64,000 nt of DNA, from assembly GCA_964551995.1 (NCBI GenBank), contig CAZKFD010000006.1, positions 2,894 through 66,893 on the forward strand, in the 5' to 3' direction. This DNA is from an uncultured Eubacteriales bacterium (lineage in GTDB: Bacteria; Acidobacteriota; Aminicenantia; Aminicenantales; Saccharicenantaceae). Position numbers and translations under genes: made by a program. Under the pieces are notes generated by a model. It was not told the origin of the DNA and did not search any database. It saw only the letters and a program-made list of their open reading frames with translations. Positions within the stretch are counted from its first letter, which is position 1; every line of letters starts with the position of its first letter. Of this stretch, positions 1,796-50,237 are shown one piece after another.

Positions 1796-3928
1796 ATGAA
1801 AAAAGCGGCCATGTGTCTTGCGGCCTTAATTCTCATCTGCCTTTGGTGCCCGGCCCGGAGCGCTGAGCTCAGTGCCCGGCTTCCGGCCGATGAAGGCGGG
1901 GGCTACCGGGCTGGTGACTTAGACCTTTCCCGAAGCCTCTCGCAGGAACAGGCGATGGCCAGCCGGGTCATCGAGTGGGAAATGAAGCTCAGGGTGCTCG
2001 TGGGTGTACGGGAAGGCCTGCCCCTGACGCCGTCGGTCGTGACCTCGTCGTTCCTCAAATATACCTTCTCCGCGAACTTCCGCTCCGATGAGGAGTTGGC
2101 CGAAGAGCAGAGTCAGATCCGGCGCATCTTCAACCTTAAGGACGTCAAGCTGCTGACGGAGGGGAACCTGAGCTGGAAAGCGGGCATGGCGGCCAAAGTT
2201 CCCTTCGTCTTCCGCCTGGACGGCAGGGAATATTCGATCTCCGTAAGGGGAGGAGATCTCGTCACGCGGCCGGGGTCCGTCGGGACGCAAACCTTCGGGG
2301 TCGAAGTCCTCGAGAAGGCGAAGGGTGAAGCCGTAGAAACAACCAAGGAGGTTGGCCACCCGGTGGAATGGGTCAAGACCGCCAACCTCCTGGACACAGA
2401 GTTCAGCGTTTCGAGCCTGAAGAATGTCACGGTCTTCGGCTTCGAGGACAGCCAGGGCACTCCCTATTTCATCTCACTCCAGCAAATGGATGTGTACACG
2501 GAAGGCCCGATCGCGGAGAGCGCCGCGATCGGAGGAGTCGTCGGCGGGCTCGCGGCCAAGGGACCAGCCCCAGAAGTCAAGGCGCCGAAGCGCGTCAAGA
2601 TGGTGGAGCCCGTCTATCCTCCCGAGGCCAGAAAAGCGAGGCTCTCCGGCGTCGTCATCGTCGAAGCCAGCGTGGGAACCGACGGGCACGTCGTCAACGA
2701 GAAAGTTCTCAAGTCGATCCCGGGGCTGGATGAGGCCGCGCTCGCCGCGGTTAGGCAATGGGTCTATGAACCGATGACCGTCAACGGAAAACTCCAGCCT
2801 TTTATCACTACGACGACGGTTCAGTTCAGCCTCTCGGAGAACGAAGCCGGGGTCGTCGGCGGGGTGGTTGGCGGTGTTGTCGGCGGCATTGCCGGAGACG
2901 TGTCCGGCGGGGTTGAAGGCGGAGTCGTCGGCGGCGTTTCCGGCGGCGTCGAAGGCGCAATGATGAGCCAGGAGCAGAAAGAATTCGAGAAGGGTGCCGT
3001 GAGGGCCGTCGGTGCCATCGAGCCACCCCGGCGGGTCAGTTCGGTCGAGCCCGTCTATCCGGAGATTGCCCGCCAGGCTCTCGTTGAGGGGGACGTCATC
3101 CTCGAAGTCCGGATCGACGAGGGCGGCAGCGTCAAGGCCGTAAGGATTCTGCGCGCGGTTCCGCTTCTCGAACAGTCCGCTTTCGACGCCGTCAGGCAGT
3201 GGAAATACGAGCCGCTCGTCATCAACGGGAAGGCCTGCGAGGCCGTTTTCCCGGTGACCGTTAAGTTCGCGCTCAGCCCGCAGGATAAGAAAAAGGAACT
3301 GGAAGAGTTCTCGAGAGACGCGGTGAGGGCCGTCGGTGCCATCGAGCCACCCCGGCGGGTCAAATCCGTCGAACCCGTCTACCCGGAGATCGCTAGGCAG
3401 GCCGGGGTCGAGGGCACCGTCATCTTCGAGGTCCGCACGAGCAAGAAGGGCGCCGTCGAGGCCGCGAGGATCCTGCGATCGATTCCCCTCCTCGACGAGG
3501 CGGCGATAGACGCTGTCAGGCAGTGGAAATACGAGCCGCTCATCATCGACGGGAAGCCGAGGAAGGCCCTGTTTACAGTGACCGTCCGGTTCATGCTGAA
3601 GACGGGGGACAGGGAGAAGGACTTTGAAAAATCCGCCGAGGGAGCGGTCAAGGCCGAGGGCGCCATCGCGCCGCCCCGCCCCGTCCATTCGGTCGAACCC
3701 GTCTACCCCGAGGACGCCAGGCAGGCCGGCGTCGAGGGCACAGTCATCCTGTCCGTCAAGGCCGACGGTGAGGGGAACGTCATCGACGTCATGGTCCTGC
3801 GGTCGATCCCCCTCCTCGACCAGGCGGCCATCGACGCCGTCAGACAGTGGAAATATGAGCCGCTCATCATCAATGGCAAGCCCACGCCCGTCGTCTTCAC
3901 CGTAACCGTGAGGTTCCAGCTGAAATAA
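1796..3928 (+). CDS. Secreted protein with an unknown N-terminal domain, a G/V-rich linker and four tandem TonB C-terminal (TonB_C) domains
   Basis: ATG at 1796 is preceded by GGAGGTG and followed by a signal peptide (MKKAAMCLAALILICLWCPARSAE). Four copies of the TonB_C pattern are present: VEPVYPxxARxxxxxGxVxxxxxxxxxGxVxxxxxLxSIPLLDxAAxxAVRQWKYEPxxxNGK. The longer listed ORF (from 1481) overlaps the anti-sigma gene and is rejected. Confidence 0.8.
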   Translation: MKKAAMCLAALILICLWCPARSAELSARLPADEGGGYRAGDLDLSRSLSQEQAMASRVIEWEMKLRVLVGVREGLPLTPSVVTSSFLKYTFSANFRSDEELAEEQSQIRRIFNLKDVKLLTEGNLSWKAGMAAKVPFVFRLDGREYSISVRGGDLVTRPGSVGTQTFGVEVLEKAKGEAVETTKEVGHPVEWVKTANLLDTEFSVSSLKNVTVFGFEDSQGTPYFISLQQMDVYTEGPIAESAAIGGVVGGLAAKGPAPEVKAPKRVKMVEPVYPPEARKARLSGVVIVEASVGTDGHVVNEKVLKSIPGLDEAALAAVRQWVYEPMTVNGKLQPFITTTTVQFSLSENEAGVVGGVVGGVVGGIAGDVSGGVEGGVVGGVSGGVEGAMMSQEQKEFEKGAVRAVGAIEPPRRVSSVEPVYPEIARQALVEGDVILEVRIDEGGSVKAVRILRAVPLLEQSAFDAVRQWKYEPLVINGKACEAVFPVTVKFALSPQDKKKELEEFSRDAVRAVGAIEPPRRVKSVEPVYPEIARQAGVEGTVIFEVRTSKKGAVEAARILRSIPLLDEAAIDAVRQWKYEPLIIDGKPRKALFTVTVRFMLKTGDREKDFEKSAEGAVKAEGAIAPPRPVHSVEPVYPEDARQAGVEGTVILSVKADGEGNVIDVMVLRSIPLLDQAAIDAVRQWKYEPLIINGKPTPVVFTVTVRFQLK
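2999..3928 (+). repeat. Three tandem ~324-bp (108-codon) intragenic repeat units encoding TonB_C domains 2-4
   Basis: An identical 40-mer GTGAGGGCCGTCGGTGCCATCGAGCCACCCCGGCGGGTCA occurs at 2999-3038 and 3323-3362, exactly 324 nt apart. A third, more diverged unit starts near 3645. Confidence 0.85.
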
Positions 3929-3934
3929 TGCGGA

Positions 3935-4324
3935 TTATTTCTTCAACCCGAGGACCCAAGATTTGAGGACCTCGATGTCCGCTTTGGGCATCTTCCTAAG
4001 GCGGGGCATTCGGGCTCCGGTGATGCCCGGAGCGCCCAAGATCTTCTTCAGCAGGTAGCTCGATTCCGGGTTTTCCGCGTCGATGATCTTGAGCGACTGG
4101 ACCTCCCGACTCGGCGCGCCGACGGCTTCGAGGATCTTGTCCGGCGAGAGGTTCAGGCTCTCGGCCGCCTCCGCGCCGCTGTGGCACTCGACGCAGCGCT
4201 TCTCAAGGACCGCCGCCACGTTATCGGAGACGCTCAGGGGCGTCTTCTGGGCGGCCGCAAAGAGCGCCGCGCCCAGGGCGGCGAGAACGGCTGAGCCGGC
4301 GATTAGGACTGCTGTCTTTCTCAT
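3935..4324 (-). CDS. Small secreted c-type cytochrome domain protein
   Basis: N-terminal signal/TM segment (MRKTAVLIAGSAVLAALGAALFAAA) and a single CxxCH haem-binding motif (CVECH). Lies 10 nt downstream of the preceding minus-strand gene. Confidence 0.55.
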   Translation of the reverse strand: MRKTAVLIAGSAVLAALGAALFAAAQKTPLSVSDNVAAVLEKRCVECHSGAEAAESLNLSPDKILEAVGAPSREVQSLKIIDAENPESSYLLKKILGAPGITGARMPRLRKMPKADIEVLKSWVLGLKK

Positions 4325-4334
4325 TTTCCCATCC

Positions 4335-5129
4335 TCATTTCATGCCCGAATATTTCAACTCGGACCCCAGAACGCTGTGCGGGATCAGGAAAACGATGAG
4401 GGTGGCGGCGGAGGCTGTGAGGACCGCGCTGCGGGCGGGGCGGCCCTTCCGGCCGGCGATGACGGCCGCGAGCCAGAAAAGGAAGGCGAAGAGGGTCTTG
4501 CTGTCGGTCAGGTCCGTCCCCAAGGGGAAGCCGCTCCAGAACGTGCCGAAAGCATATCTCTGGACGAGCGGCCCGAATACGAATCCACCCAAAAAGATCA
4601 GGACCAGCGCCCCGAGGGCGAAGCGCCGCGGGTTCCGTTCCCGGTCGAGAGCCGCGAGGCCGGCGGCCGTCGAGGCCAGCATTCCCCCGAACATCACCAC
4701 GATGTGGATGAAGAGCAGGAGAAGGGGGACCGGCTCTTTGAAGCGGATGACGACTGGCTTGTCTCCCGTGATCGAAGCCGTCCGGCCCCCAGAAACGACG
4801 AACACGCGATAAGCCAGCTTTCCGGCCGCGGGCTGCTTGGGCAGGAACCCGACGAGCTCCATGCCCTGTCGAGCGAAGTCCGCACGCCTCCACGGCTCGG
4901 CCGACTCATAGTGGCGGTATTCGAGATAGGCCTCGGCGCGCGCGGGCAGGGGCAGCCGGACAACCGCGTCCGTCGTGCTCTCGGCGCTCCGCGGAAGCTC
5001 GATGTGAACGGCCCGGCTCTCGACGACGGCCGTGACCCTCTGCGGGTGAGTCGGACCCGTCATCCTTTGAAAGACGGCCGAAGCCAGCGTGACGGCCACG
5101 GCCAGAAGCCAGAACGGGAGCTTCTTCAT
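4335..5129 (-). CDS. Membrane protein of unknown function (signal peptide, ~120-aa extracytoplasmic domain, ~4 TM helices)
   Basis: Clear codon bias, an N-terminal signal sequence and four hydrophobic segments in the C-terminal half. No family motif recognised. Confidence 0.5.
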   Translation of the reverse strand: MKKLPFWLLAVAVTLASAVFQRMTGPTHPQRVTAVVESRAVHIELPRSAESTTDAVVRLPLPARAEAYLEYRHYESAEPWRRADFARQGMELVGFLPKQPAAGKLAYRVFVVSGGRTASITGDKPVVIRFKEPVPLLLLFIHIVVMFGGMLASTAAGLAALDRERNPRRFALGALVLIFLGGFVFGPLVQRYAFGTFWSGFPLGTDLTDSKTLFAFLFWLAAVIAGRKGRPARSAVLTASAATLIVFLIPHSVLGSELKYSGMK

Positions 5130-5153
5130 GCGCCTTTTCCTTGAGTCAGACTA

Positions 5154-5845
5154 TCATCGGATGGTGATGGAACCGAAGACGGCCGAGGCGTGGAGGTGAA
5201 GCGTGCCCGCCGCCGCGCCTTGGTCCGGGGCCGGCCTTTTCTGCTCGATGGTGCCGAGAAACGGGGCCCCTTCGATGACGACCCGCCAATCGGGCCTGAC
5301 CCGAAGTTCGATCGACCCCAGCACGGCCGAGACCGCCAGGACGGCACGGCCGCCTTCGAGCCCCGCACCGGTGAGGTCGATTTCGGCGTTGCCCAGCACG
5401 ACCTCCACCGTCCCGCCCCTGAAGTTCGCGGATGTGACGCGGCGCGACGTTCCGGACAAGGCCTGCGAGATCCGGAACTCGTCGGCGGTCAGCTCAGGGG
5501 TTTTTTTTTACCCGCCGCCAAGGCCGGCCAAATCAGGATCCAGATGCCCATGCCTATGATGACGAGGGGCCAGAAATAATGCCAGGCGGTGTGGTTGAAG
5601 ATCCGGATGCGCATCAGGAGGAAGAAGGCCCCGAACAGGATGAAGAAAACGCCGGGCCCGACGTTCTGAAAATTGTTGCCGAGGATGATCGCGACGCCGA
5701 TGAGGATGAAGACGACGGGCCAGTAGCGGCTGAAGAGGTAGCCGAAGTTCAGCTGCCCCATCTGGTCGAGCAGGAAAAGGACGCCGATCCCGACGAGGAC
5801 GAGCCCCCAGAAGATGCGGCCCAGCGGTCCCTTCGAAGCGGCCAT
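5154..5845 (-). pseudogene. LiaF/YvqF-like cell-envelope stress protein split by a frameshift at an A9 homopolymer
   Basis: ORF 5489..5845 encodes only the 4-TM N-terminal module. ORF 5154..5459 encodes the LiaF-type C-terminal domain (GTVEVVLGNAEIDLTGA...VLGSIELRVRPDWRVV). The downstream frame stays open back through the A9 run (T9 on the plus strand, ~5500-5508), so a 1-nt length change fuses both halves. Confidence 0.6.
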
Positions 5846-5901: not shown

Positions 5902-6035
5902 GGGATGGGGATGAGGGCCGTCCGGCTCCCCCGCGCTAGCGCTCCCCCGGGAACCAGTCCCGTCGGTTCCCCCGTCGGAAGCCGACGGGACCCCCTCCGC
6001 TACGGGGGTTCCCGGACGGCCCTCATCCCCATCCC
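5902..6035. repeat. 134-bp nested palindromic element in a divergent intergenic region
   Basis: Perfect 24-nt arms: GGGATGGGGATGAGGGCCGTCCGG (5902-5925) and CCGGACGGCCCTCATCCCCATCCC (6012-6035). Inner inverted repeats are also present (CCGGGAACC/GGTTCCCGG, GTCCCGTCGG/CCGACGGGAC). Confidence 0.75.
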
Positions 6036-16971: not shown

Positions 16972-17459
16972 TGCGGATCTTGTCTCCTCGAGGGCCGGAC
17001 GAAAAACGAGTTCCCTTTATACCAGAGAAACCGCCCTGGGTCAAAACCCCAGAATTTCCTCCGCCACCCGCGCTCCTCGCACGGCCGCCTTCTCAGGGAA
17101 GGGCAGAAACATCCGGTTTATATCAACGAACTTTGGAATATAATTTCGATGGTTCCCCGCCATAAGGAGCTCGAGGACTTTCTGGTACGAAAGATCGGCC
17201 GGGATCTTGAGATTGCCGATCATCCGAAACGCGGTCTCCGGCTTCGGGATTCCTCTCGCCGGGGAACAGGAAGCCTGCCTTTATTGACCGCCGCGGGACG
17301 GGCGTGCTATAAACGGGGCTGATCGCGACGCGATGAATCGAACGAAGAGCTCCTCCATGAAAAAATCCCGCGTCCTGATCCTGGCGGCCGTGGCCGCTTA
17401 CTGGAAGCTCGCCGGGGAGATCTGGGTCAGGTATTCGGGCAATTTTTGATTATAATTAT

Positions 17460-17591
17460 GGGGACACAATACTCATTTCCGAATTTCCTCCTGCCAGGCG
17501 CCTCTGCGCCAGCCATCCTTCTCAGTCGTTTCTCGTCGGACGCAGGAGCGTGCCTCGGCGCAAGAAATCGGGAAAAGAGTATTGTGTCCCC
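17460..17591. repeat. MITE-like inverted-repeat element, copy A (132 bp)
   Basis: Left end GGGGACACAATACTCATTTCCGAATTTC (17460-17487). Reverse complement of the right end (17564-17591) is GGGGACACAATACTCTTTTCCCGATTTC. Ends 22 nt upstream of the symporter start codon. Confidence 0.8.
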
Positions 17592-17613
17592 AAATTAGCG
17601 CAAATTAGCGATC

Positions 17614-19719
17614 ATGACGATCTTTGGACTGCACTGGCTCGACTTCACGATCGTCGTCCTCTTCGTCCTCGCCGTCCTCTGGCTCGGCCGCCTGGCCGGC
17701 CGCAGGACGCGGAGCGCGGAGGATTTCTACGTCGCCGGGCGCCGGCTTGGGAAGATCTACCAGTTCTTTCTCAACCTGGGGACCTCGACCAACGCCGACC
17801 AGGCCATCGTCGTTTCCCGCGAGGTCTACCGCCAGGGCATCGGCGGCATGTGGATCCAGTATCTCGTCCTCTTCCTGACGCCCTTTTACTGGTTCACGAC
17901 GGGGTTCTTCCGCCGCGTCCGGCTGGTGACCATCGGCGATTTCTTCGAGGAACGCTTCAAGAGCAAGTTCCTCGGCGCGTCCTTCGCCGTTTTCACGCTC
18001 TTCATGGCCTTCCTCGGGAACGGGGTCGGTTACATGGTCGCGGCCAAGACGATGATGGCCCTGACGCCCAAGCCGGTTGCCAAATATACGGCCCAGGAGA
18101 AGCTCAGCGTCGACCTTTTCCACGAGTACCGGGCGCTCGAGCTCAAGGCGGAGTCGGGGCTCACGCCCGCGGAGCAGAAACGCTTCGACGAGCTCGCCGA
18201 GCGCTCGAAGAAGGACGAGCTCAAGGCCATCATCTCCTACACGAACCCCGTCGCGATCTACTCGACCTACACGGTCATCGTCGCCGTCTACACGATGATG
18301 GGCGGGTTCCTGGCGGCCGCGATCACGGACGTCATCCAGGGGATCCTCCTGACGGTCTTCTCGATCATACTGATCCCCATCGCCCTGGCCCGGATCGGCG
18401 GCTTCGCCGGCCTGCACGCCCTCGTGCCGGACTTCATGTTCCGGCTTTTCGGCTCGGCGGCGACGAGCGAGTACGCCTGGTACACGATCGTGGCCATGGT
18501 CCTCGCGAACCTGGTCTCCATCATCGCCGTCGCTACGGGCATGCAGACGGCCGGCTCGGCCAAGAACGAGACGGCGGCCCGGGTCGGCATGATCGGCGGC
18601 ATGTTCTTCAAGCGCTTCATCATGATCTTCTGGGCCCTGACCGGGCTTCTCGCCATCGCCCTCTACGCCGGGAAGCTCCACGACCCCGACCTCATCTGGG
18701 GCCACATGACGATGGACCTCCTCTTCCCCGGCGCCATCGGGCTGATGATGGCCGGGATCCTGGCGGCAAAGATGTCGGCGCTGGCGGGCTCGAGCGTCTC
18801 CTATTCGGCTCTCTTCATCCGCAACCTCTACCAGCCGTTCGTCAAGCCGAAGTCGGACCGGCACCTGATCAACGTCGGCCGGGCCGCGATCGCCGTGACC
18901 CTTCTCGGCGGCGTCGGGGTGGCGCTCTTCGTCGGCAACCTCCTCGACCTGTTCAAGTATTTCATCTCGCTGCCGGCGATCTTCGGCGCCGCGATCTGGC
19001 TCGGCTTCATGTGGCGCCGGCTGACGAAGGCGGCTGTCATCATCCAGGTTTTCCTCTGCTTCACGATCTACGCCCTCGTCCCGACCCTCTTCCAGTCGCT
19101 GGACTGGGCGAAGACGCTGCCGGCCTTTCTCCAGGAAACCGAGGCCCAAGTCGTCACGATCACGACGCGGGCCGTACGCGGGGACGTCGAGGCCGGGCGG
19201 GCCTCCGCCGTCGGCGAGATGATCAAGAAGACGCGCGTCAATCCGCCGACCGGCATCTTTTTCGAGAAGGTGGCCCTGACCGACCCCGAGAACCCGGAGT
19301 CGCCGCGGATCGGGATCGGGCGCTTCCAGGCGGAGGTCTGGGTCCTCAGCCGGCTGGGGATCGATTTCTCGCGCTTTTCCGCGGCCCAGCTGAACGCCGT
19401 GCGCTTCGGCTTCGACGCGCTCTTCCCGTTCGTGCTGCTCTTTCTCCTGAGCGCCGTGACGCGGCCGGTCCCGAAGCGGGACCTGGACCGGTTCTTCGCC
19501 AAGGTCCACACGCCGGTCCAGCCGACGAGGGAGGGCGAGGAGGGGGCCCTCCGGCGCGCGGCCGAGGACTACGGCGAGATCGAAAAACGGAAGCTCCGTC
19601 CGGGCTCGAGCTGGGAATTCATGAAGCCGGCCCGGAGCGACGTCATCGGCTTTCTCGCGAGCTGGCTCCTCGTCGGCGTCATCATCCTGCTCCTGTGGCT
19701 CATGGTCAGCATCAAGTAG
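17614..19719 (+). CDS. Sodium:solute symporter (SSS) family transporter
   Basis: ~13-14 TM helices and an N-terminal pattern typical of SSS (DFYVAGRRLG). 701 aa. Confidence 0.85.
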   Translation: MTIFGLHWLDFTIVVLFVLAVLWLGRLAGRRTRSAEDFYVAGRRLGKIYQFFLNLGTSTNADQAIVVSREVYRQGIGGMWIQYLVLFLTPFYWFTTGFFRRVRLVTIGDFFEERFKSKFLGASFAVFTLFMAFLGNGVGYMVAAKTMMALTPKPVAKYTAQEKLSVDLFHEYRALELKAESGLTPAEQKRFDELAERSKKDELKAIISYTNPVAIYSTYTVIVAVYTMMGGFLAAAITDVIQGILLTVFSIILIPIALARIGGFAGLHALVPDFMFRLFGSAATSEYAWYTIVAMVLANLVSIIAVATGMQTAGSAKNETAARVGMIGGMFFKRFIMIFWALTGLLAIALYAGKLHDPDLIWGHMTMDLLFPGAIGLMMAGILAAKMSALAGSSVSYSALFIRNLYQPFVKPKSDRHLINVGRAAIAVTLLGGVGVALFVGNLLDLFKYFISLPAIFGAAIWLGFMWRRLTKAAVIIQVFLCFTIYALVPTLFQSLDWAKTLPAFLQETEAQVVTITTRAVRGDVEAGRASAVGEMIKKTRVNPPTGIFFEKVALTDPENPESPRIGIGRFQAEVWVLSRLGIDFSRFSAAQLNAVRFGFDALFPFVLLFLLSAVTRPVPKRDLDRFFAKVHTPVQPTREGEEGALRRAAEDYGEIEKRKLRPGSSWEFMKPARSDVIGFLASWLLVGVIILLLWLMVSIK

Positions 19720-25777: not shown

Positions 25778-26845
25778 ATGAAAAGGGAAATCCGCGACCT
25801 GACGCTCGAGGAGCTCCAGGCGGAGCTCGCGGCCCTCGGCGAACGTCCATTTCGGGCCGGACAGATTTTTTCCTGGCTTTACCATAAGGGCGCATCGGAT
25901 TTCGGGGAATTTTCATCGTTGTCCAAGGGCCTCCGCGATATGCTGGCCGCGCGATTTACGATCAGCCGGCTCGAACTCGAGGCGCGGCTGGAATCCAGTG
26001 ACGGAACGGCCAAGTTCCTCTTCAAGCTGGCCGATGGCCCCTGCGTCGAGGCCGTCCTTATTCCGGCCGGGAAAAGAAAGACCGCCTGCATTTCAACGCA
26101 AGTCGGCTGCAAGTTCGCCTGCGGCTTCTGCGCCAGTGGCCTCCACGGCTTTAGGCGGAACCTGACGCCGTCGGAGATCACCGGCCAAGCGCTCGCGCTC
26201 CGGGCCGAGGCCGGCGGCGAGATCACGAACTATGTCTTCATGGGCATGGGCGAGCCTCTGGACAACTTCGACAACCTGGCCAAGGCCCTGCGCATCATGA
26301 ACGCGCCAGAGGGCATGGGGATCGCGGCGCGCCGCATGACAATCTCGACGGCCGGCTACGTCCCGGGCATCGCGCGGCTCAAGGAGCTCGACCTGCAGGT
26401 CAATCTCTCGGTTTCTCTCCACGCCGCGAACGACCGCCTGCGCGACCGGCTCATGCCGATCAACAGGAAATACCCGCTCGAAAAGCTCGTTGCCGCCTGC
26501 GAGGATTACATCCGGTCCGGCGGCCGGATGATTACCCTCGAGTACGTCGTCATCCAGGGTGTCAACGGCGGGCTCAACGATGCCGACGGGCTGGCCGGGA
26601 TCGCCCGCCGCCTGAGGGCCAAGGTCAACCTGATCGTCTACAGCCCGGTTCCCGGCCTTGCCTTCGATGTCCCGCCCGAGGCCGACGTGGCGCGCTTCAC
26701 GCGCTGGCTCGAAGAGAGGAAGGTCCGCGTCACGCGACGCCGCTCCAAAGGACAGGACATCCTGGCCGCCTGCGGACAGCTCGCCGGCCGCTTCACGGAA
26801 AAGGCGGAGACGGCCGGACGCCCGAGACCGGTCAAAGAGAGCTGA
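25778..26845 (+). CDS. rlmN: 23S rRNA/tRNA (adenine-C2)-methyltransferase RlmN (radical SAM)
   Basis: N-terminal FRAGQIFSWLY motif, radical-SAM CxxxCxxC (GCKFACGFCASG), MGMGEPL, and C-terminal GQDILAACGQL. Confidence 0.9.
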   Translation: MKREIRDLTLEELQAELAALGERPFRAGQIFSWLYHKGASDFGEFSSLSKGLRDMLAARFTISRLELEARLESSDGTAKFLFKLADGPCVEAVLIPAGKRKTACISTQVGCKFACGFCASGLHGFRRNLTPSEITGQALALRAEAGGEITNYVFMGMGEPLDNFDNLAKALRIMNAPEGMGIAARRMTISTAGYVPGIARLKELDLQVNLSVSLHAANDRLRDRLMPINRKYPLEKLVAACEDYIRSGGRMITLEYVVIQGVNGGLNDADGLAGIARRLRAKVNLIVYSPVPGLAFDVPPEADVARFTRWLEERKVRVTRRRSKGQDILAACGQLAGRFTEKAETAGRPRPVKES

Positions 26846-28133
26846 GCACGGCCAGCGTTTCTATGTGCGGCGTGTGCGGGAAAAAATCGTAGATCTTCAG
26901 GTCCCGGACCCCGTAGGCCTGCCGCAGGATCTTCAGGTCGCGCGCCAGCGTCGTCGGGTTGCAGGAGAGGTAGAGGACGAGCGGGACGCGGGCCGCGGCC
27001 AACTCCCGCAGCACCTCGGGGTCCACGCCCTTGCGCGGGGGATCGAGGATGACGACGTCGACGCCCCGTTCGAGAAGCTCCGGCAGCCACGCCTCGCTCG
27101 TCCCTTCGCAGAGGCTGAAGTTTCCGGCCCGGTTGAGCTCGATGTTCTTCTTGAGATAGCGCAGGTTGGCGGGGTCCGGCTCGACCCCGAAGACCTCTCT
27201 CGCGCCGCCGGCCAGGAAGAGGCCGAAGGTCCCGAGGCCGCAATAGAGATCGGCGACCGTCGCGTCCGGCATCCCCTTCACGGCCTCGGCCATGTCGTCG
27301 AAAACCTTCTCCAGGATGGCCACGTTGACCTGGAAGAACGACCGGGCTCCGACCCTGTAGGAAATCCCGCAGACGACCTCTTCGAGCCGGCCGACGCCGC
27401 CCATCGTTTCCTCCCGGACGCGTGTGCCGTCCTTGACCAATCCCACGATCCCCGACAGGGGATAACGCAGGTGGAGGCCCGAGAGTTTGCCCGACATCTC
27501 CTCAATCCTCGCGGCCGACTCGAGATGGAAGATGACAAGGGACCGTCGCCGCGACCGGCTCTCCCTGATCTCGAGGTCCGATACGGCCTCCCACTCCTCG
27601 CGGCCGACGAAGGCGACGAGCTCGGCGGCGAGGTCGTTCACCGCGTCGGAGACGAGATAACAGCGGTCCACCGGGACGAAGGACTCGCGCTCGCCCGGTT
27701 CGTGATAGACGGCCCGGGCCGTCCCGCCCTGCCGCACGATGCGCAGCCGGATCCTGTTCCGGTATCCCCAGATCTCTGGCGATGGTGTGACATTGAGAGC
27801 GCCGGAAAAGGCGTCCAGCGCGTGGCCGACGATCTCTTCGACCTGGGCCTTCTTCACCTCGAGCTGGGTGCCGTAATCCATGTCCTGATAGGGCGAGCAG
27901 GCGAGGTAATGGCGGCACCTCGGATCGACGCGGGCCGAGGACTTCTCGACGATCCGGACGGTCCGTGCCTCGGCGAAGCTCTTCCGCTCCCGGACGACCT
28001 CGGCCTCGACCGTTTCGCCCGGGAGCCCCCGGTCCGCGAAGACGACCTTCCCGCCGTCATGGGCCAGACTCCGCCCCGGGTAGACGATCTTTTCAATCTT
28101 CAATCCAGTCAATAAAGGGGACATAATACTCAT
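26832..28133 (-). CDS. Class I SAM-dependent RNA (uracil-5)-methyltransferase, TrmA/RlmD family
   Basis: N-terminal TRAM-like segment (GLPGETVEAEVVRERK), SAM motif DLYCGLGTFG, and catalytic C-terminal block (LVYLSCNPTTLARD). The start is uncertain because both candidate ATGs (28133, 28124) lie inside repeat copy B. Confidence 0.8.
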   Translation of the reverse strand: MSIMSPLLTGLKIEKIVYPGRSLAHDGGKVVFADRGLPGETVEAEVVRERKSFAEARTVRIVEKSSARVDPRCRHYLACSPYQDMDYGTQLEVKKAQVEEIVGHALDAFSGALNVTPSPEIWGYRNRIRLRIVRQGGTARAVYHEPGERESFVPVDRCYLVSDAVNDLAAELVAFVGREEWEAVSDLEIRESRSRRRSLVIFHLESAARIEEMSGKLSGLHLRYPLSGIVGLVKDGTRVREETMGGVGRLEEVVCGISYRVGARSFFQVNVAILEKVFDDMAEAVKGMPDATVADLYCGLGTFGLFLAGGAREVFGVEPDPANLRYLKKNIELNRAGNFSLCEGTSEAWLPELLERGVDVVILDPPRKGVDPEVLRELAAARVPLVLYLSCNPTTLARDLKILRQAYGVRDLKIYDFFPHTPHIETLAVLSSL

Positions 28134-28271
28134 TTCCTAATTTCTTCGGCCGGCGGAGGCGCGACTCTCATTTCCGGCCCCTCCCGGCGCCCCCTCGGCG
28201 TCATGGCGTCTCAGCCGGACGGCCCCGTTCCGGCCCCCTTGTCGAAATTCGGAAATGAGTATTGTGTCCCC
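28117..28271. repeat. MITE-like inverted-repeat element, copy B (155 bp)
   Basis: Left end GGGGACATAATACTCATTTCCTAATTTC (28117-28144). Reverse complement of the right end (28244-28271) is GGGGACACAATACTCATTTCCGAATTTC. Confidence 0.8.
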
Positions 28272-29488
28272 AATTTGATGTGGCGGCCCCTGCCGCTCCA
28301 GGGGACACCCATTTCCGACGGCAGGGCGTTCGCCGCATAGCAGGCCTCGAGCGCCTCGTCCAGACCATCGACCCAGATCCTCTGCGCCCCGCCGCCTTCC
28401 ACCCCTCCCCCTTCCGCCCCTCCGCCTCCCTCCTCAACGCGCCGCAGCCCGTCCGGGAATTCCCGGATCTCCGGCATCGAATCCTGCATCGCGTTGACGC
28501 AAAGCGTCTGGCTTGCGGCCGCTTTGAGTCCGCAAACCGGAAGTTTGCCGCTTCTCACGCCCCGGACGGTGTCCCAGAGCTTGTTCATGCGACCCTCGTC
28601 TGGAACCCCGTACTCCCGCCGCGTCCCGTCCGCGAACTCGGCCTTCAGGCCCGACACGCGGCTCTCGCATCTCACCGTCCCCCTCTCGAACTCATACGAG
28701 AAGACCGGGCCTCTTTCGGCTCGTCCGGCGTGCGTGACGTAAAACAGCACTTCGACGCCTTCTTCGGTCGCGGCCCGCATCGCCGCCGTGTCGTAGTTTT
28801 CGATGGGGTAGGCGCGGTAGAGCTCGGCTTCGACATCGACCGGGCGCGCCGCCTCCCGGTGCCCTTTCCCCAGCACGTAGAACATGTTGTGGAGGTCGTG
28901 GGCCATGGCGTTCTGAGCCGGGCTGTCGAGGATCCACCCTCCGGCGTCGTCGCGCTTCCTCCCGGCCCACCCGTTCCTCCGGTAATACGCCTCGTCGCGC
29001 GGCCAGAGGTACAGGCACTTCAGCCGCTTCGCCCGGCCGAACCGCCCGGCTATGACGTCGCTCTTCAGCGCCTGAACCGCCGCGCTGAACGACCACTGGT
29101 AGCCGACCGCCGCCCAGCGCCCCGCGCTCTCCCTCTCGGCCTCGATCATCTCCCGTGCTTCCCGGATCGTGCCTGCGAGCGGCTTCTCGCAAAGGACGTA
29201 GCTTCCCCGCTCCAGCGCGAGCCGCGTCTGGCGTGCGTGGAACTGGATGGGGGAGGAGAGGACGGCCAGTTCCGCCGTCCTGTTCCGGTAGAAATCCTCC
29301 AGCGCCGCGTAGAGCGGAACGCGCATGGCCCGCAGCTCCTCGAGCCACGGGCACCGCTCCGGTTCGGGGTCGACCGCCCCCGCGATCCGGAAGAGGCCCG
29401 AGTCCTTCGCGTTGAGGAGCTCTCGCACGTAGACAGCGCCCATGCCGCCGATGCCGACGAGGACGAGCGATACGGGGGCCCTGCTCAT
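28211..29488 (-). CDS. Gfo/Idh/MocA family oxidoreductase (C-terminal ~20 codons encoded by repeat copy B)
   Basis: Start at ATG 29488 (MSRAPVSLVLVGIGGMGAVY Rossmann motif) and an EKP motif (VLCEKPLA). The tail ...GTQYSFPNFDKGAGTGPSG* is read from the element. The longer listed ORF (to 29692) overlaps the upstream gene. Confidence 0.8.
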   Translation of the reverse strand: MSRAPVSLVLVGIGGMGAVYVRELLNAKDSGLFRIAGAVDPEPERCPWLEELRAMRVPLYAALEDFYRNRTAELAVLSSPIQFHARQTRLALERGSYVLCEKPLAGTIREAREMIEAERESAGRWAAVGYQWSFSAAVQALKSDVIAGRFGRAKRLKCLYLWPRDEAYYRRNGWAGRKRDDAGGWILDSPAQNAMAHDLHNMFYVLGKGHREAARPVDVEAELYRAYPIENYDTAAMRAATEEGVEVLFYVTHAGRAERGPVFSYEFERGTVRCESRVSGLKAEFADGTRREYGVPDEGRMNKLWDTVRGVRSGKLPVCGLKAAASQTLCVNAMQDSMPEIREFPDGLRRVEEGGGGAEGGGVEGGGAQRIWVDGLDEALEACYAANALPSEMGVPWSGRGRHIKLGTQYSFPNFDKGAGTGPSG

Positions 29489-29501
29489 GTTTTCCGGCGG
29501 C

Positions 29502-30638
29502 TCAATATTCGCACAGTTTGCCGTGCTCGTCCAGCATGGCCATGTAGTTGTCGTACTTCGTCCCGACGGCGACGCTGTGGCTCGAGCCAAGGATGAAGCG
29601 CCCGCCGGGCTTAGCGCACGACATGGCCCGCCGGACGTCTTGCCGGACGTCCTTCGCCGTCCCGCCGACCAAGTGCTCGACGGCGACGCCACCCCAGAGC
29701 GTGATCTGCCGCCCGTACGCCCTCTTGAGCCTGCAAATGTCCATTCCGGCCGTGGGCTGGATCGACTGGTAGGCGTCGTAGCCGATCTCGATGAAGTAAT
29801 CCATCATGGCGTTGACGTTGCCGCAGCAGTGCTTGAGGATCTTCTTGCCCAGCGCCTTGACGTTCCGGGCCCGCTCCTTGTTGGCCTCGAGGAACATGTC
29901 GCGGAACGTGTCCCGGCCGACGAAGGGGCCGCGGTTGTAGGCGAGGTCCTCGTCCCAGAGGACGCCGTCCGAACCCGGATGGATCCGGACGCCGTCGGCC
30001 TGGTTCTGCTGCCTGACGAGAAAGGCCGTCGCCGCCCGCACGACGTCCGGGCTCGCGGCGATCTCCGTCAAGCCTCTCTCCATGCCGCCCAGCAGGACGA
30101 TGCCGACGGACCCGCCAGACGGGCCGCAGATGAATTTTTCCGTCCCGAGCTCTCGGATGACGGCGTCCAGGATCCTCCAGGACCGCTCGTCGCGCCGCGG
30201 CGGCTCAGGCTCCCGCTCGAATTCTGCCGCCGTGAAGATCTTCGCCTGCGCGACCGGGTCCCGGATGCAGGTGATGTCCTGCGTGACCTCCGAGAACTTG
30301 TAGACCCGGCCGTATTTGTCCTCCCACGTCTCGGGATCGATGCGGCGCGGCGGAGGGTCGCCGGTCTCCGCCGGCATCTCCCAGGTCGCAGCGGGAAAGG
30401 TGACGATGTCGAGCGGCAGCCGCCGGTGGAGCTTGATGTGGTCTTTGAACCAGCTTTCGGCGACCTCGTCCCGCCGGCCCTCCCAGAAGGCGATCTGCGA
30501 CCGAGCCTTGGCCCGGAGATAGGTCTCGCGCCCGATGATCCTCTCGACCGTGTCGAAGTCGATGGCGAATTCCCCATAGGGGACCCTGTCGGGGATGCGG
30601 CCTTCGAGGACCGCGAGGACCCGCTCTTTGGAGGTCAT
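29502..30638 (-). CDS. UroD/MtaA-family methyltransferase-like protein (second paralogue)
   Basis: Start MTSKERVLAVLEGRIPDRVP (typical UroD-family N-terminus). ATG 30638 forms an ATGA overlap with the GH38 stop. ~378 aa. Confidence 0.75.
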   Translation of the reverse strand: MTSKERVLAVLEGRIPDRVPYGEFAIDFDTVERIIGRETYLRAKARSQIAFWEGRRDEVAESWFKDHIKLHRRLPLDIVTFPAATWEMPAETGDPPPRRIDPETWEDKYGRVYKFSEVTQDITCIRDPVAQAKIFTAAEFEREPEPPRRDERSWRILDAVIRELGTEKFICGPSGGSVGIVLLGGMERGLTEIAASPDVVRAATAFLVRQQNQADGVRIHPGSDGVLWDEDLAYNRGPFVGRDTFRDMFLEANKERARNVKALGKKILKHCCGNVNAMMDYFIEIGYDAYQSIQPTAGMDICRLKRAYGRQITLWGGVAVEHLVGGTAKDVRQDVRRAMSCAKPGGRFILGSSHSVAVGTKYDNYMAMLDEHGKLCEY

Positions 30639-45924: not shown

Positions 45925-45941
45925 GTTATAATTTAGGCATC

Positions 45942-48900
45942 ATGGCGTTGCCGCCTGACGCATCGTATTCACAGCCCGGAGCTTCCGCCTCGGCGGCCGC
46001 GCACCTTAGGCGCATCCGGTCGCTCATCCCGCGGGCCATGCTCCGTGACCAAGAATATGCCCGGCGTGTAGTTGCCTCACTCGAGAGCCGATATCGCGCC
46101 CGCAGCGAAGGCGCGCGTGCGGGCGGGGCCGAGAGCCACGGCAGCGCCGGCCCGGGCCGCGTGACGCCCGACCTCCTCGATGACCTGGCCGCGCTTGAAG
46201 CCCGTCTCGAAGCCTCTGCCGGCCGGTGCCGCGACCGCGCCCGCCTCCGTCCCCCCGTCTCCTACCCCCACGATCTGCCGATCACGGCGCGCGCCCCAGC
46301 CATAATCGAGGCCATCCGCTCGCCGCGCCATCGCGTCGTCATCATCGCCGGCGAGACCGGCTGCGGCAAGAGCACGCAGATACCCAAGATGTGCCTCGAA
46401 GCTGGCCGCGGCATTGCGGGTCTCGTCGGCTGCACACAGCCTCGTCGCATCGCCGCCATCACCATTGCCTACCGCATCGCGGAGGAGTTCGGGGAGGAAC
46501 TTGGCCGCTCCGTGGGCTACAAGATCCGGTTCCAAGACCGCACCTCCGCTTCCGGCTACATCAAGATTATGACCGACGGCATCCTCCTCGCCGAGACGCA
46601 GGGCGACCGCCTCCTCAATGACTACGACACAATCATCATCGACGAGGCCCACGAGCGCACGCTTAACATCGACTTCCTCTTGGGCATCCTGCGCCGTCTC
46701 CTCGACGCGCGCCCGGACCTCAAACTCATCATCACCTCAGCGACACTCGACACCGAGAAATTCTCGCAGGCCTTCCGCAACGCCCCCGTGATCGAGGTGA
46801 GCGGCCGCCTCTACCCTGTCGAAGTCGAATACCGCCCACCCGAAAAGGACGAGGCCGAGGACAAGGATTACGTCGGCCAGGCCGTCGAGGCCATCGCCGA
46901 CCTTCGCCGCGAGAAGCCCCCCGGCGACATCCTCGTCTTCATGCCGACCGAGCAGGACATCCTCGAGACCTGCCGCCTGCTCGAGGGGCGCAAGCTCCCG
47001 AACTCGACAGTCCTGCCGCTCTTCTCGCGCCTCCCTGCCGGTCGCCAGCGCATGGTCTACACGGTGACGGGGCCGAAGATCGTCGTCGCCACGAACGTCG
47101 CCGAGACGTCGCTCACGATCTCCGGTATCCGCTACGTCGTCGACACGGGTGTCGCCCGAATCGCCCAGTACCAGCCGGGAACGCGCATCAAGAGCCTACC
47201 GATAAGCCCGATCTCGCGTGCCTCTGCCGACCAACGCAAGGGCCGCTGCGGCCGTGTTCGTGAGGGCCTCTGCGTCCGCCTCTACTCAGAGGCCGAGTAC
47301 GAGGCACGAGACCGGTTCACGCAGCCCGAGATCCTGCGCTCGGACTTGGCGGAGGTCATCCTGCGCATGCTCGACCTCCGGTTGGGGGCGCCGCAGGATT
47401 TTCCGTTCATCGACCGCCCGGCGTTTAAGGCCGTCCGCGACGGCTACGAGACACTCCTCGAGCTCGGCGCGATTCGCCGTATTAATTCGGGGACACAATA
47501 CTCAATTCCGAATTCCCCTCGCCTCCGGGAACGCGGGGAAACAGCCGGCGACGGCATCGATTCCCGCGAGCGGCGCGGGAAGGCGGGAGACGGCCGGGGA
47601 CGGCCCTTTAAGAAATCGGAAACGAGTATTGTGTCTCCGATTTGGGCGCTCACCGACAAGGGCCGGCTGATGGCGCGCATGCCGCTCGATCCCCGCATCT
47701 CGCGCATGCTCATCGAGGCCCGGCGCGAGAACTGCCTCTCCGAGGTTGCCGTGCTTGCGGCCGCCCTCAGCATCCGCGACCCGCGCGAGCGCCCGCCCGA
47801 CCAGGCCGCCCAAGCCGACGCTGTCCACGCCGCCTTCCGCGACCCACATTCCGATTTCCTCGTCCTGCTCAATATCTGGAACCGGTACCACGGCGACTTC
47901 GAACGCCTCGGGAGCGGCACCCAGCGCCGCAAGTTCTGCCACGACAACTTCCTGTCCTTCCCGCGGATGCGCGAGTGGACCTACCTTCACGAAGAGATCG
48001 GCGCCGTCCTCGCCGAGCAGCGCCTCTGGTCGCCGAAATCCCCCGAGACCGGCAAATCGTCCCTCGCCCCGCACGCCGACATCTCGCCCGCGCTCTACGC
48101 CGGCATTCACCGCGCGATCCTGGCCGGATTCCTCTCGAACATCGCCGCCCACAAGGAGAAAAACCTCTACTCTGCCGCCAAGAACCGCGAGGTGATGCTC
48201 TGGCCCGGCTCGGTCCTCTTCAACAAAGCGCCCGGCTGGGTCGTGGCGACCGAAATGGTCAGGACCTCGCGCCTCTTCGGCCGCCAGGCCGCTCGCATAG
48301 ACCCTGCCTGGCTCGAGGAGCTCGGCGGCCCGCTCTGCAAGCGCTCCTACTCCGACGCCGCCTGGGACCGCGCCCGCGGCGAGGTCGTGGCCAAGGAGCG
48401 TGTTGCCCTCTTCGGCCTCGAGATCGTGCGCGACCGCCGCGTCTCTTACGGCCACATCAATCCTTCCGAGGCACACGAGATCTTCGTCATGTCTGGCCTC
48501 GTCGAGGGCAAGATTGACGAGCCGCCCCCCTTCCTCGCCCACAACCTCGCCCTCCAGCGCCGAGTCGAAGCCATGGAAGAGAAGCTCCGCCGCCGCGACA
48601 TCATGGTACCTGAGGCCGCGATCGCAAAGCTCTACTCCGAACGCCTGCCTCTGATCTCCGATGTCCGCTCGCTCCGCAAGCTCATTAAGGACCGCGGTTC
48701 CGACAAGTTCTTGCGCCTCACCGAGGACGACCTTTTGAGCGTCCGCCCCGACGCGGCGGCCGTTGCCTCCTTCCCCGACACGGTCGAGGTCGGCGGCCGC
48801 CCCTTCGCCGCGCTCTACAAGTTCGCCCCCGGCGAGGACGATGACGGCGTGACCCTGACCGTCCCCGCGAGCCTCCTCAGCGCCATCCCGCCCGGACGCC

Positions 48901-50237
48901 TCGAGTGGGGCGTGCCGGGCCTTTACAAGGACAAGATAGTCGCCCTTATCAAGGGCCTGCCCAAGCGCTACCGGAAACTCCTCGTGCCCGTGGCCGAGAA
49001 GGCCGAGACGATCGCCGAGGAGATGCCGCGCGCGCCCGAGGAGGTGCCGCTTTCGAGGGCCGTGGCTGAGTTCGTGCGGCGGCGCTTCGGCGCCGACATC
49101 CCGCCCCGCGAATGGGCCCTCGCTGAAGTCCCGAAGTATCTGCGAATGCGCGTCGCCGTGACCGATCCAGTGACCGGCCGTGTTATCGAGACCGGGCGCG
49201 ACGTCGAACTCCTCCGCAAGGTCATCGGCGCGGCGGACACAGCGCTGTCGAAGGTCGAGTCGCCGGCCTGGCAAGAGGCGCAGCGGAAATGGGAGAAGAC
49301 GGCGCTTGAGGCCTGGACGTTCGGCGACGTGCCTGAGAAGATTGCTGTCGGAACGTCGCTCACGGCTTATCCGGCGCTCGTCGTCGAAAGGGAGCCCGCG
49401 GGGGAATCGCTTGCCGTCCGCCTCTTTCCGGCGCGTGCCGAGGCCGAGGCCGCCCACTGTCAGGGCGTGCGCTGGCTTCTCCTCCGGAAATTCGCCAAGG
49501 AGCTGGCCTTCGTCCGCCGCTATCACAAGATCCCAGCCGAGTTCGAACGGGCGGCGCAAGCCTTCGGCGGGCGGGAGGCCGTCGAGCGCGCTATTGAGGC
49601 AGCGCTGGCCCGCGAAGTATTCGAGCGGGCGCACATTCGCACAGAAGCTGACTACCGCGCCTATGAGGCGTCGGCCGGGCGAGCGCTCTTCGAGAAAGGC
49701 CACGCCCTCACCCAGGCGACGCTCCGGGTCCTCGAACTCATGCTGGCGGTCCGGATGGAGCTCGGCCGGGGAGGGCTCGCCGTTCAGCGCGCCGCCGCCG
49801 CAGCCAAGGCGCGACCGAGGGAGACGCTCAGCCTCTACGAGCTCAGCCGCCTCAAGGAGCCGGTCGTCCCGGCTTACTACGAGCAGATCACGCGGGACCT
49901 CGACGTGCTCGTCCCGCCCGACTTCCTCGAGGCGTACCCGGTCGAGCGCCTCATCCGGCTGCCGCGCTACATCGAAGCGTTGAAGCTCCGGCTGGAGCGC
50001 GCCCGGATCGACCCGGAGAAGGACCGGGCGAAGTCCGCCCAAGTCGAGCCGTACGCTTCTGCGCTCGAACGCCTGCAGGGAAGTCCGGATCCGGAGAAGC
50101 GCCGGGCCGTCGAGGATCTGCGCTGGATGATCGAGGAGTTCAAGGTCTCGCTCTTCGCGCCCGAGATCAAGACGGCCTTCCCGATCTCGGCCGTCCGCTT
50201 GGCGCGGAAGATCAAGGAAATCGAAGCCATGGTCTAG
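45942..50237 (+). CDS. hrpA: ATP-dependent RNA helicase HrpA (DEAH/RHA family) carrying a 50-codon in-frame insertion
   Basis: Walker A GETGCGKST, DEAH box (IIIDEAHERTLNID), SAT (TSATL), motif VI (QRKGRCGR), HA2/OB region and a long HrpA-specific C-terminal extension. 1431 aa. Confidence 0.9.
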   Translation: MALPPDASYSQPGASASAAAHLRRIRSLIPRAMLRDQEYARRVVASLESRYRARSEGARAGGAESHGSAGPGRVTPDLLDDLAALEARLEASAGRCRDRARLRPPVSYPHDLPITARAPAIIEAIRSPRHRVVIIAGETGCGKSTQIPKMCLEAGRGIAGLVGCTQPRRIAAITIAYRIAEEFGEELGRSVGYKIRFQDRTSASGYIKIMTDGILLAETQGDRLLNDYDTIIIDEAHERTLNIDFLLGILRRLLDARPDLKLIITSATLDTEKFSQAFRNAPVIEVSGRLYPVEVEYRPPEKDEAEDKDYVGQAVEAIADLRREKPPGDILVFMPTEQDILETCRLLEGRKLPNSTVLPLFSRLPAGRQRMVYTVTGPKIVVATNVAETSLTISGIRYVVDTGVARIAQYQPGTRIKSLPISPISRASADQRKGRCGRVREGLCVRLYSEAEYEARDRFTQPEILRSDLAEVILRMLDLRLGAPQDFPFIDRPAFKAVRDGYETLLELGAIRRINSGTQYSIPNSPRLRERGETAGDGIDSRERRGKAGDGRGRPFKKSETSIVSPIWALTDKGRLMARMPLDPRISRMLIEARRENCLSEVAVLAAALSIRDPRERPPDQAAQADAVHAAFRDPHSDFLVLLNIWNRYHGDFERLGSGTQRRKFCHDNFLSFPRMREWTYLHEEIGAVLAEQRLWSPKSPETGKSSLAPHADISPALYAGIHRAILAGFLSNIAAHKEKNLYSAAKNREVMLWPGSVLFNKAPGWVVATEMVRTSRLFGRQAARIDPAWLEELGGPLCKRSYSDAAWDRARGEVVAKERVALFGLEIVRDRRVSYGHINPSEAHEIFVMSGLVEGKIDEPPPFLAHNLALQRRVEAMEEKLRRRDIMVPEAAIAKLYSERLPLISDVRSLRKLIKDRGSDKFLRLTEDDLLSVRPDAAAVASFPDTVEVGGRPFAALYKFAPGEDDDGVTLTVPASLLSAIPPGRLEWGVPGLYKDKIVALIKGLPKRYRKLLVPVAEKAETIAEEMPRAPEEVPLSRAVAEFVRRRFGADIPPREWALAEVPKYLRMRVAVTDPVTGRVIETGRDVELLRKVIGAADTALSKVESPAWQEAQRKWEKTALEAWTFGDVPEKIAVGTSLTAYPALVVEREPAGESLAVRLFPARAEAEAAHCQGVRWLLLRKFAKELAFVRRYHKIPAEFERAAQAFGGREAVERAIEAALAREVFERAHIRTEADYRAYEASAGRALFEKGHALTQATLRVLELMLAVRMELGRGGLAVQRAAAAAKARPRETLSLYELSRLKEPVVPAYYEQITRDLDVLVPPDFLEAYPVERLIRLPRYIEALKLRLERARIDPEKDRAKSAQVEPYASALERLQGSPDPEKRRAVEDLRWMIEEFKVSLFAPEIKTAFPISAVRLARKIKEIEAMV
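47489..47638. repeat. MITE-like inverted-repeat element, copy C (150 bp), inside the hrpA coding sequence
   Basis: Left end GGGGACACAATACTCAATTCCGAATTCC (47489-47516). Reverse complement of the right end (47612-47638) is GGAGACACAATACTCGTTTCCGATTTC. Confidence 0.8.

Follow-up and report, generated by a model that had tools for sequence, protein, structure and literature searches.

An in-frame palindromic repeat in the hrpA helicase gene of an Aminicenantes-like bacterium and its probable kinship with repeats linked to Y1 transposases

TIRtrons, as outlined by Di Nocera et al. (2013; PMC3733652), consist of genes resembling those of RAYTs (REP-associated tyrosine transposases; REP, repetitive extragenic palindrome), which are flanked by terminal inverted repeats (TIRs) with a GGGGWSAS motif and encode TIRYTs (TIR-associated tyrosine transposases), while the TIRs also occur as singles, dimers, and clusters; that outline treats mobilization of the repeats by TIRYTs as unproven (PMC3733652). 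Published classifications treat TIRYTs, TnpAREP subclass 2.1, and RAYT Group 1 as one and the same (Quentin et al. 2018, PMC6006769; Bertels et al. 2017, PMC5581495). As for repeats within genes, Rickettsia palindromic elements (RPEs) are cited as lying in frame in Rickettsia protein genes (PMC3733652), and GTAG/CGTC-tagged REP singles and dimers are depicted inside uvrA, uvrB, and recB, those of recB occupying roughly matching positions in two Xanthomonas species (Di Nocera et al. 2013, Fig. 7; PMC3733652). Palindromic repeats read as protein loops are one of few bacterial routes by which old conserved enzymes gain new peptide segments, and the documented cases are few, namely the RPEs and some intragenic REPs. 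Here we describe a further case, a 150-nucleotide (nt) inverted-repeat element (copy C) within the hrpA helicase gene of an uncultured bacterium of the Aminicenantia (Acidobacteriota), in a 64,000-nt stretch of DNA referred to below as the window (assembly GCA_964551995.1, contig CAZKFD010000006.1, positions 2,894 to 66,893). We consider that copy C is probably a translated and tolerated two-arm copy of a TIRYT-type repeat family, and that its occupation of hrpA is old and has since been remodelled. The case would add the little-studied TIR repeats of RAYT Group 1/TIRYT transposases to the documented ones, tied to a well-resolved structural position.

Copy C in the winged-helix loop of HrpA

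The host of copy C is an open reading frame (ORF) of 1431 codons (45942..50237, forward strand), which by its translation and Pfam matches encodes HrpA with DEAD, Helicase_C, HA2_C, OB_NTP_bind, and DUF3418 (3.7e-150) domains, and E. coli HrpA structures matched the product at 9e-63. Copy C occupies 47489..47638 of the forward strand, exactly 150 nt or 50 codons in frame; it opens with GGGGACACAATACTC at 47489 and closes at 47638 with the reverse complement of that sequence, one base being mismatched. Its ends are 28-nt inverted arms, and the inverted repeat as a whole reaches 47484-47515 and 47612-47643, that is, 32 nt at 84% complementarity. The left arm, GGGGACACAATACTCAATTCCGAATTCC (47489..47516, forward), is translated as GTQYSIPNS and agrees with the family consensus at 26/28 positions without a mismatch in the core; the right arm (47611..47638, reverse orientation) is translated as ...SETSIVSP and agrees at 23/28 positions with one core mismatch. 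The interior (47517..47610, forward) is G+C-rich and encodes a low-complexity peptide rich in G, R, and E.

Comparison with orthologues from 119 clusters determined that copy C equals the net insertion relative to empty alleles. The spacer from LGAI to LT was 58 residues in the window HrpA versus 8 in insert-free orthologues, a net gain of 150 nt, and the segment from LGAI to LTxxGR was 8 residues in every distant orthologue. In the alignment with E. coli HrpA structures, pairing stopped near ELGAI and restarted three residues before LT, leaving about 46 query residues unpaired. The loop of one empty allele (L201, protein P0004; L numbers denote loci of our survey) reads CGC CGC GAA GAC TCC GGC TGG GCC, or RREDSGWA (8 aa), and excision of 47489-47638 in silico left CGC CGT ATT AAT TCG ATT TGG GCG, also an 8-codon loop.

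The position of the insert in the protein was examined in an AlphaFold2 model of HrpA residues 95-815, built from a 55-sequence alignment (predicted template modelling score, pTM, 0.72). HrpA residues 517-565 (47490..47636, forward strand; model residues 423-471) had a predicted local distance difference test score (pLDDT) of <50 and are predicted to be disordered; the insert had no secondary structure and was flanked by strands at model residues 417-419 and 474-476 (HrpA 511-513 and 568-570). Because pLDDT <50 fell on the insert between two strands, the model places it at the tip of the winged-helix beta-hairpin as a predicted disordered segment. Unrelated inserts of 45-60 aa were observed at the same loop in distant HrpA orthologues (L178, 1834-2013; L185-L189, for example L188, 1834-1989; L199, 1834-1968), those of L178 and L185-189 being made of short tandem repeats (GGAAGTC…, CAGGTGT…), and the winged-helix loop is therefore a generally permissive site.

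Given the oddity of an A/T-rich palindrome in a G+C-rich gene, one might think of a chimeric assembly, of a pseudogenized hrpA, or of a removable intein or intron, and nothing beyond this oddity speaks for any of them. Two other metagenome contigs (L120 and L121) were 99.8% identical to window positions 45642-49541 (3900 nt), with 7-8 single-nucleotide polymorphisms, none of them inside copy C, and no indel, so that the element is identical in all three assemblies; copy C is thus no assembly artefact. Rfam yielded nothing at the gathering score in the whole window and nothing at E<=1 in 47400-47720, and 50 residues with neither a nucleophile nor an HN motif are too small for an intein; both the intein and the intron reading were accordingly ruled out. 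The hrpA ORF is intact and all HrpA domains score, and we regard this group of explanations as practically dismissed.

An earlier note on this DNA, made from its letters and ORFs, had reported a 150-bp element at 47489-47638 that leaves the hrpA frame unbroken, had quoted the peptide across it, and had held that the excess of the helicase spacer coincides with the element boundaries; coordinates and translation agree with the first two statements, and the coincidence is exact. It had suggested a surface loop and had proposed to model whether the loop is disordered, as is now predicted, and had named a chimeric assembly as a way to be wrong, against which stand the intact copies in L120 and L121. 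Its description of a dispersed inverted-repeat element, translated as GTQYSFPNF at the end of a Gfo/Idh/MocA gene, is likewise borne out by the three inverted pairs of the window described below.

Repeat family and its association with Y1 transposase genes

The 14-mer core of the arms, at two or fewer mismatches, occurred six times in the window, always as part of one of three inverted pairs (expected, 0.13 occurrences; 0/100 shuffles reached six). Besides copy C, these are copy A (17459-17592), which is intergenic and ends 22 nt before a sodium:solute symporter gene (17614..19719), and copy B (28117-28271), which lies between two minus-strand genes (ORFs 28211..29692 and 26832..28133). The right arm of copy B encodes KLGTQYSFPNF near the C terminus of the GFO_IDH_MocA protein of ORF 28211..29692. 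Copy B provides this gene with approximately its last 22 codons and stop (…KLGTQYSFPNFDKGAGTGPSG, followed by the stop), and the first, mechanically assigned ATG of the downstream tRNA U5-methyltransferase-like ORF 26832..28133 (MSIMSP…) falls within its left arm; because both gene ends fall in its arms, copy B alone reshapes a C terminus and possibly an N terminus. In a three-copy alignment, conservation among A, B, and C was limited to the arms of about 30 nt, the interiors being unlike in sequence and length, so that the interior of copy C is unrelated to those of A and B. All three nevertheless fold as long hairpins far better than shuffled sequences (z, -4.9 to -7.7).

To follow the family in other genomes, 596 Gb of sequence, one genome per species, were scanned with a 15-mer, which gave at least 119 loci. 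About 1,000 chance 15-mer matches are expected in 596 Gb (an estimate for uniform base composition), and lone matches without extended context are likely noise; our conclusions therefore rest on paired matches, flank context, and transposase adjacency. Most of the listed loci share extended context, for example aaaacgGGGGACACAATACTCATTCCCCAATTTT and gaattccGGGGACACAATACTCAATTC, and many of the matches form inverted pairs with a spacing of 34-190 nt; they come from Aminicenantes, other Acidobacteriota, Planctomycetota, Proteobacteria, Elusimicrobia, and others. A full-text literature search with the 14-mer core, in either orientation and as DNA or RNA, returned no paper.

At one of these loci (L049), a 228-aa Y1 protein is encoded between inverted cores. 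By tblastn, a Y1 homologue adjoins the core in 11 of the 119 loci listed, and in 9/9 complete loci cores facing inward lie on both sides of the Y1 gene, at 40-170 nt from it. The Y1 proteins matched Pfam Y1_Tnp above cutoff and, in NCBIfam, REP_Tyr_transpos alone. Invariant in eight of them are the HuH motif (NH.HL), RY.E.NPV, which equals the class 2 Y---NP signature, and a C-terminal TGRPLG; no Bac_DnaA_C or helix-turn-helix Pfam match was found in the Y1 proteins, which are candidate members of subclass 2.1. Furthermore, the arm start GGGGACAC fits the published GGGGWSAS motif. When single arms were folded, GGGG(AC) was paired in about 80% of arms, AATACTC was mostly unpaired, and CAATACTC lay in the loop, the partner sequence varying by variant; such stem-loops are what HUH enzymes acting on single-stranded hairpins would need. 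The family is dispersed as the three dimers of the window, as singles and dimers in hrpA orthologues, and as tandem clusters in L031, L087, L099, and L107. Head-to-tail arrays of arms with a period of about 28-38 nt were observed in L031 (1519-1660), L087 (1142-1200), L099 (about 2325), L107 (2835-2890), and L064 (5781-5870), some of them directly by the transposase gene. Taken as sequence evidence, these features place copy C among the repeats of TIR/REP type that are associated with Y1 transposases resembling RAYTs.

The terminal inverted repeats of about 30 nt, the size of 134-157 nt, and the want of coding capacity would also suit a classical miniature inverted-repeat transposable element (MITE) derived from an insertion sequence (IS) with a DDE transposase and moved by cut-and-paste with target-site duplication. 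Direct repeats at the ends were absent from copies B and C, and a 5-nt repeat can be read at copy A alone, with AATTA on both sides if each end gains one base; the A/T-rich flanks belong to the inverted repeat itself. No DDE transposase gene was found between such ends in the listed loci, where the sole gene type was the Y1/HUH transposase, and the arms also occur singly and in tandem arrays as REPs do. A MITE origin is therefore judged very unlikely.

We also asked whether arms lie within long ORFs at the listed loci, and most of the spanning ORFs proved to be spurious G+C-rich frames or upstream extensions. By sequence, tilS of L049 and perhaps L085 look like possibly genuine intragenic carriers; in L049, one arm (4526-4540) is apparently in frame in a tilS-like ORF (3894..5303, minus strand), in another reading frame (…GGHNTHSPILE…) and next to the RAYT-like gene.

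Occupation of the HrpA linkers across the clade

One or both arms were found at the winged-helix loop in 45/119 HrpA orthologue clusters, all in one Aminicenantes-like clade and always in frame. Both arms were present in 11/119 clusters, the forward arm only (for example, RKSGTQYQFPNSRWE) in 32/119, and the reverse arm only in 2/119, whereas 53/119 had a loop of nine residues or fewer; the remaining 21/119 had other loops, many of them decayed arms of unchanged length such as RKTAAPRRGPESRWE. The arm-bearing orthologues are 66-76% identical to the window HrpA and are labelled Aminicenantes/Acidobacteriota. Every recovered loop, from 4 to 88 aa, was in frame and free of stops. Decayed arms of the same length occur in L149 and L164/165, and several 8-codon alleles within the clade retain AAATCG, GGGGA, or TAC remnants, which identify those alleles as secondary deletions. 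The earlier note had proposed to align orthologues for absence of the loop: insert-free orthologues do exist, but the insert is not private to this genome. The note would have been refuted by a homologous segment lacking the inverted repeats; the orthologues with a homologous segment, however, also carry the nucleotide arms.

Further irregularities were observed in hrpA of orthologues. In L140-L143 (for example, L140, 1691-1780), the forward arm is apparently split by a nested small palindrome, CCTCGGTTTCTACCTAAACCGAGG -> RKSGTRAGGTSPRFLPKPRAQFLVPH…, which, if true, is a repeat inside a repeat inside a gene. Short duplications are found at arm ends, TGTGTCCCCAAATTC twice in L124 (1834-1974) and AATTCGGGGA twice in L200 (6456-6614), and could stem from slippage or from an arm terminus that was cut and joined more than once.

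The same arms occupy a second linker about 175 codons downstream of the first loop (about 400-900 nt in L120-L201), between the ratchet helix and the OB region, where many orthologues carry them in frame as intact one-arm or two-arm copies; L201, empty at the first site, is occupied at the second. In the window this linker (residues 693-710; 48018..48071, forward strand) is 18 aa versus 9 aa in outgroups, with low pLDDT at model residues 606-616, and judging from TGGTCGCCGAAATC versus GTGTCCCCGAAATC it may be what decay has left of a reverse arm. In L130, the two-arm copy at the second site is about 90% identical to that at the first, interior included, and is partly tandemly duplicated, while the first site of L123 and the second site of L201 share 82% identity over 115 nt, flank included. 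Whole two-arm copies thus appear to have been copied as units, in the manner of REPINs (REP doublets forming hairpins), at least within hrpA. The notion that each copy is a REPIN with a conserved spacer holds for some hrpA copies and was ruled out for A, B, and C by their unrelated interiors.

The surviving hrpA arms are near consensus (27/28 in L138; 27 and 26/28 in L123). Their T, Q, and N codons were invariably ACA, CAA, and AAT in 19/19 distinct arms, codons that in the same genes make up only 4%, 9%, and 16% of those for their amino acids, at a G+C content of third codon positions (GC3) of 0.83-0.95. Because these codons are always the rare ones, it is the arm DNA, not the peptide, that is under constraint. 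Peptide-level conservation of GTQYSFPN was ruled out by codon usage, by intergenic copies, and by copies in other frames, and peptide selection is no explanation for the maintenance of the arms, which likely occurs by gene conversion or re-copying from other copies in the genome or by selection on the DNA.

Such frozen synonymous sites, with rare A/T-ending codons in 19 distinct orthologues, would also be expected if the arms or the encoded loop were kept for a use of the host, be it an mRNA or DNA hairpin that tunes expression, a binding site of a domesticated transposase, or a protein loop, and it accords with such a use that lone arms without a partner are conserved too and that the hairpin is a much stronger fold than shuffled sequences give (z = -4.9). 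Many clade members, however, lost or decayed their arms with hrpA intact, there is free variation in interiors and lengths, such arms lie between genes elsewhere, the peptide is predicted to be disordered, and the unrelated inserts in the same loop (L178, L185-189, and L199) mark a permissive site rather than a specific function. Exaptation is accordingly improbable. Of the two fates that the earlier note had offered for the insert, a tolerated surface loop agrees with pLDDT <50 on residues 517-565 alone and with orthologues having an 8-residue loop, whereas exaptation gains no such backing, the conserved feature being the arm DNA and not a peptide. The term "essential-type", which the note applies to the helicase, is a loose one.

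The course of events that we favour would be as follows. The insert would be a "dimer", a copy with two arms, of a short palindromic repeat whose arms elsewhere serve as the TIRs of a tyrosine transposase gene that is RAYT-like and of the Y1 (HUH, IS200) type. The repeat would thereby belong with the TIRYTs/TIRtrons, to which RAYT Group 1 and TnpAREP subclass 2.1 correspond. The transposase is presumed to cut and join the repeats as single-stranded DNA hairpins, without target-site duplication, and one copy would have landed in the beta-hairpin turn of the HrpA winged-helix domain. Only copies keeping the frame and free of stops would survive there (5/6 arm frames are open), so that copy C would be translated as a disordered 50-residue loop tolerated by the helicase. 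The occupation would date to an ancestor of the Aminicenantes-like clade, and later remodelling would have included the loss of one arm, decay toward G+C, partial deletions down to about 8 codons, and duplication of two-arm copies to the second linker.

Several observations weigh against this course. Occupied and empty alleles interleave on a neighbour-joining (NJ) tree of HrpA, a tree that is not robust at short branches. From a simple REPIN-like unit one would not expect the unrelated interiors seen in A, B, and C. The sole NCBIfam match of the Y1 proteins, REP_Tyr_transpos (NF047646), scored 48-71 bits, below the equivalog cutoff of 80. A tblastn search with the Y1 protein found no Y1 transposase gene in the 64-kb window, and the transposase link therefore rests on other genomes. 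The codon bias of the arms gave a Fisher p of 3e-55, which overstates independence because related sequences were pooled.

The interleaving bears on a recurrent, targeted insertion, by which the loop and the second linker would be hot spots hit in separate lineages, and the pattern would reflect site preference instead of one old insertion. Empty alleles of the form RRED[ST]xWA (P0004, P0010, and P0011) do stand among two-arm carriers, but on the short branches of the NJ tree that are not robust. That the arm DNA is near consensus while the proteins are only about 70% identical, and that one two-arm copy is present at two sites of the gene, would suit recurrence, as would the native loops, which often read RKSG (...AAATCGGG) and thus resemble the 5' flank of the arm itself, and the presence in L125/L127 of another arm variant (…ACTCTGTCCCT) that is also found genome-wide in several Aminicenantes metagenome-assembled genomes (MAGs). 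Against recurrence, the forward arm gives GTQY in every orthologue except one (the first arm of L153, GHNTY) and each reverse arm gives SIVSP, although other open frames are available; same-length decayed arms (L149 and L164/165) together with nested partial deletions (RKFPNSRWE and MSPNSRA) point to long residence, and related carriers share homologous interiors, for example RGRQ... in P0003/P0014/P0016. Recurrent insertion is on balance unlikely, though it deserves serious consideration; because alleles interleave and the L125/L127 variant is genome-wide in some MAGs, re-insertion or conversion retains the same appreciable, if minor, probability. Recombination between alleles could also replace a single ancient descent.

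Beyond an old occupation since remodelled, the HrpA linkers might be long-term safe harbours for TIRYT-type repeats, with arms actively maintained at the DNA level over order-level time, which we hold to be improbable. The cause would be either the transposase, once domesticated, or selection for a hairpin of the hrpA DNA or mRNA, and, if true, the repeat would be a selfish or domesticated one co-evolving with one helicase gene and not a neutral passenger.

Another palindromic repeat family, distinct from that of copy C (AAGAnGGGGTCAAACCTA…TAGGTTTGACCCCnTCTT, translated in orthologue proteins as …GSNLPF…RFDPLL…), was observed in or near hrpA of orthologues at several positions (L132, 2248-2300 and 3681-3730; L133, 2259-2345; L140/L141, about 3611 and 2997; L149, 2293; L200, 8392; L201, 3880), and no exact copy of it is present in the window. 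The spread of HrpA length within the clade, 1291-1586 aa, seems to be largely repeat-driven, which is a caution for annotators. Elsewhere in the window, we observed an A/T-rich inverted repeat in this G+C-rich genome (43387-43611; 50-nt arms, 74% complementarity, 125 nt apart) that is unrelated to copy C in sequence, a 31-nt inverted repeat (5902-6035; 90% complementary, arms 72 nt apart), and three tandem 324-nt repeats (2970-3917; 69-75% identity) that are probably a repeated protein domain.

Comparison with described palindromic repeats

The closest likeness is to TIRtrons: the arm start fits GGGGWSAS, inverted arms stand on either side of a Y1 gene resembling those of RAYTs, single, paired, and clustered arms are all found, the family is spread over many phyla, and the transposase shows HuH and Y---NP motifs with a putative C-terminal extension, as judged from motifs in eight proteins. 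The TIR families presented in the published outline of TIRtrons, in contrast, are moderately abundant and extragenic; from these published descriptions we know of no intragenic in-frame TIRs, of no 15-nt core identical from Alphaproteobacteria to Aminicenantes, and of no orthologous persistence in one gene. Moreover, no TIRYT gene was seen in this window.

With REP/REPIN-RAYT systems and bacterial interspersed mosaic elements (BIMEs; Bertels & Rainey 2011, PMC3116915; Nunvar 2010, PMC2817692), the family shares two inverted palindromic units that form a long hairpin, a single-copy Y1 transposase flanked by units, the absence of target-site duplication, the apparent copying of some two-arm copies as wholes, and a probable long-term vertical inheritance. 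It differs in that the arms have no GTAG tag at either end, the transposase falls under the NCBIfam RAYT equivalog cutoff, the interiors in the window are unrelated, and REPs are by definition mostly extragenic. The REPs inside uvrA, uvrB, and recB resemble the present case in lying within large multidomain nucleotide-dependent enzymes; they belong to another repeat class, and the occupation here is deeper, with 45/119 orthologue clusters, two sites in one gene, and DNA-level constraint.

The likeness to RPEs is one of behaviour, not of membership: a palindrome of about 100-150 nt lies in frame in genes of functional proteins and is read as an extra surface segment, and orthologues exist without it. 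RPEs, on which the original work is reportedly that of Ogata et al. in 2000, are CGTC-tagged, whereas the arms described here have no CGTC tag and belong to a different sequence family; the RPE host is obligately intracellular, whereas the lineage here, Aminicenantes-like judging by the neighbours of its HrpA, is free-living and G+C-rich. The arms described here are linked to a Y1 transposase, while we know of no dedicated transposase for RPEs.

The series of empty, one-arm, two-arm, decayed, and second-site alleles amounts to a natural time series, which bears on how long a repeat persists at one locus, on conversion versus re-insertion versus selection, and on how a gene heals around a repeat. 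In-frame palindromic repeats in protein genes and the TIR repeat class of TIRYTs are already known. New are the TIR class within a gene, the clade-wide occupation of one structural loop and a second linker, the arms with frozen rare codons, and the orthologue series of intermediate states.

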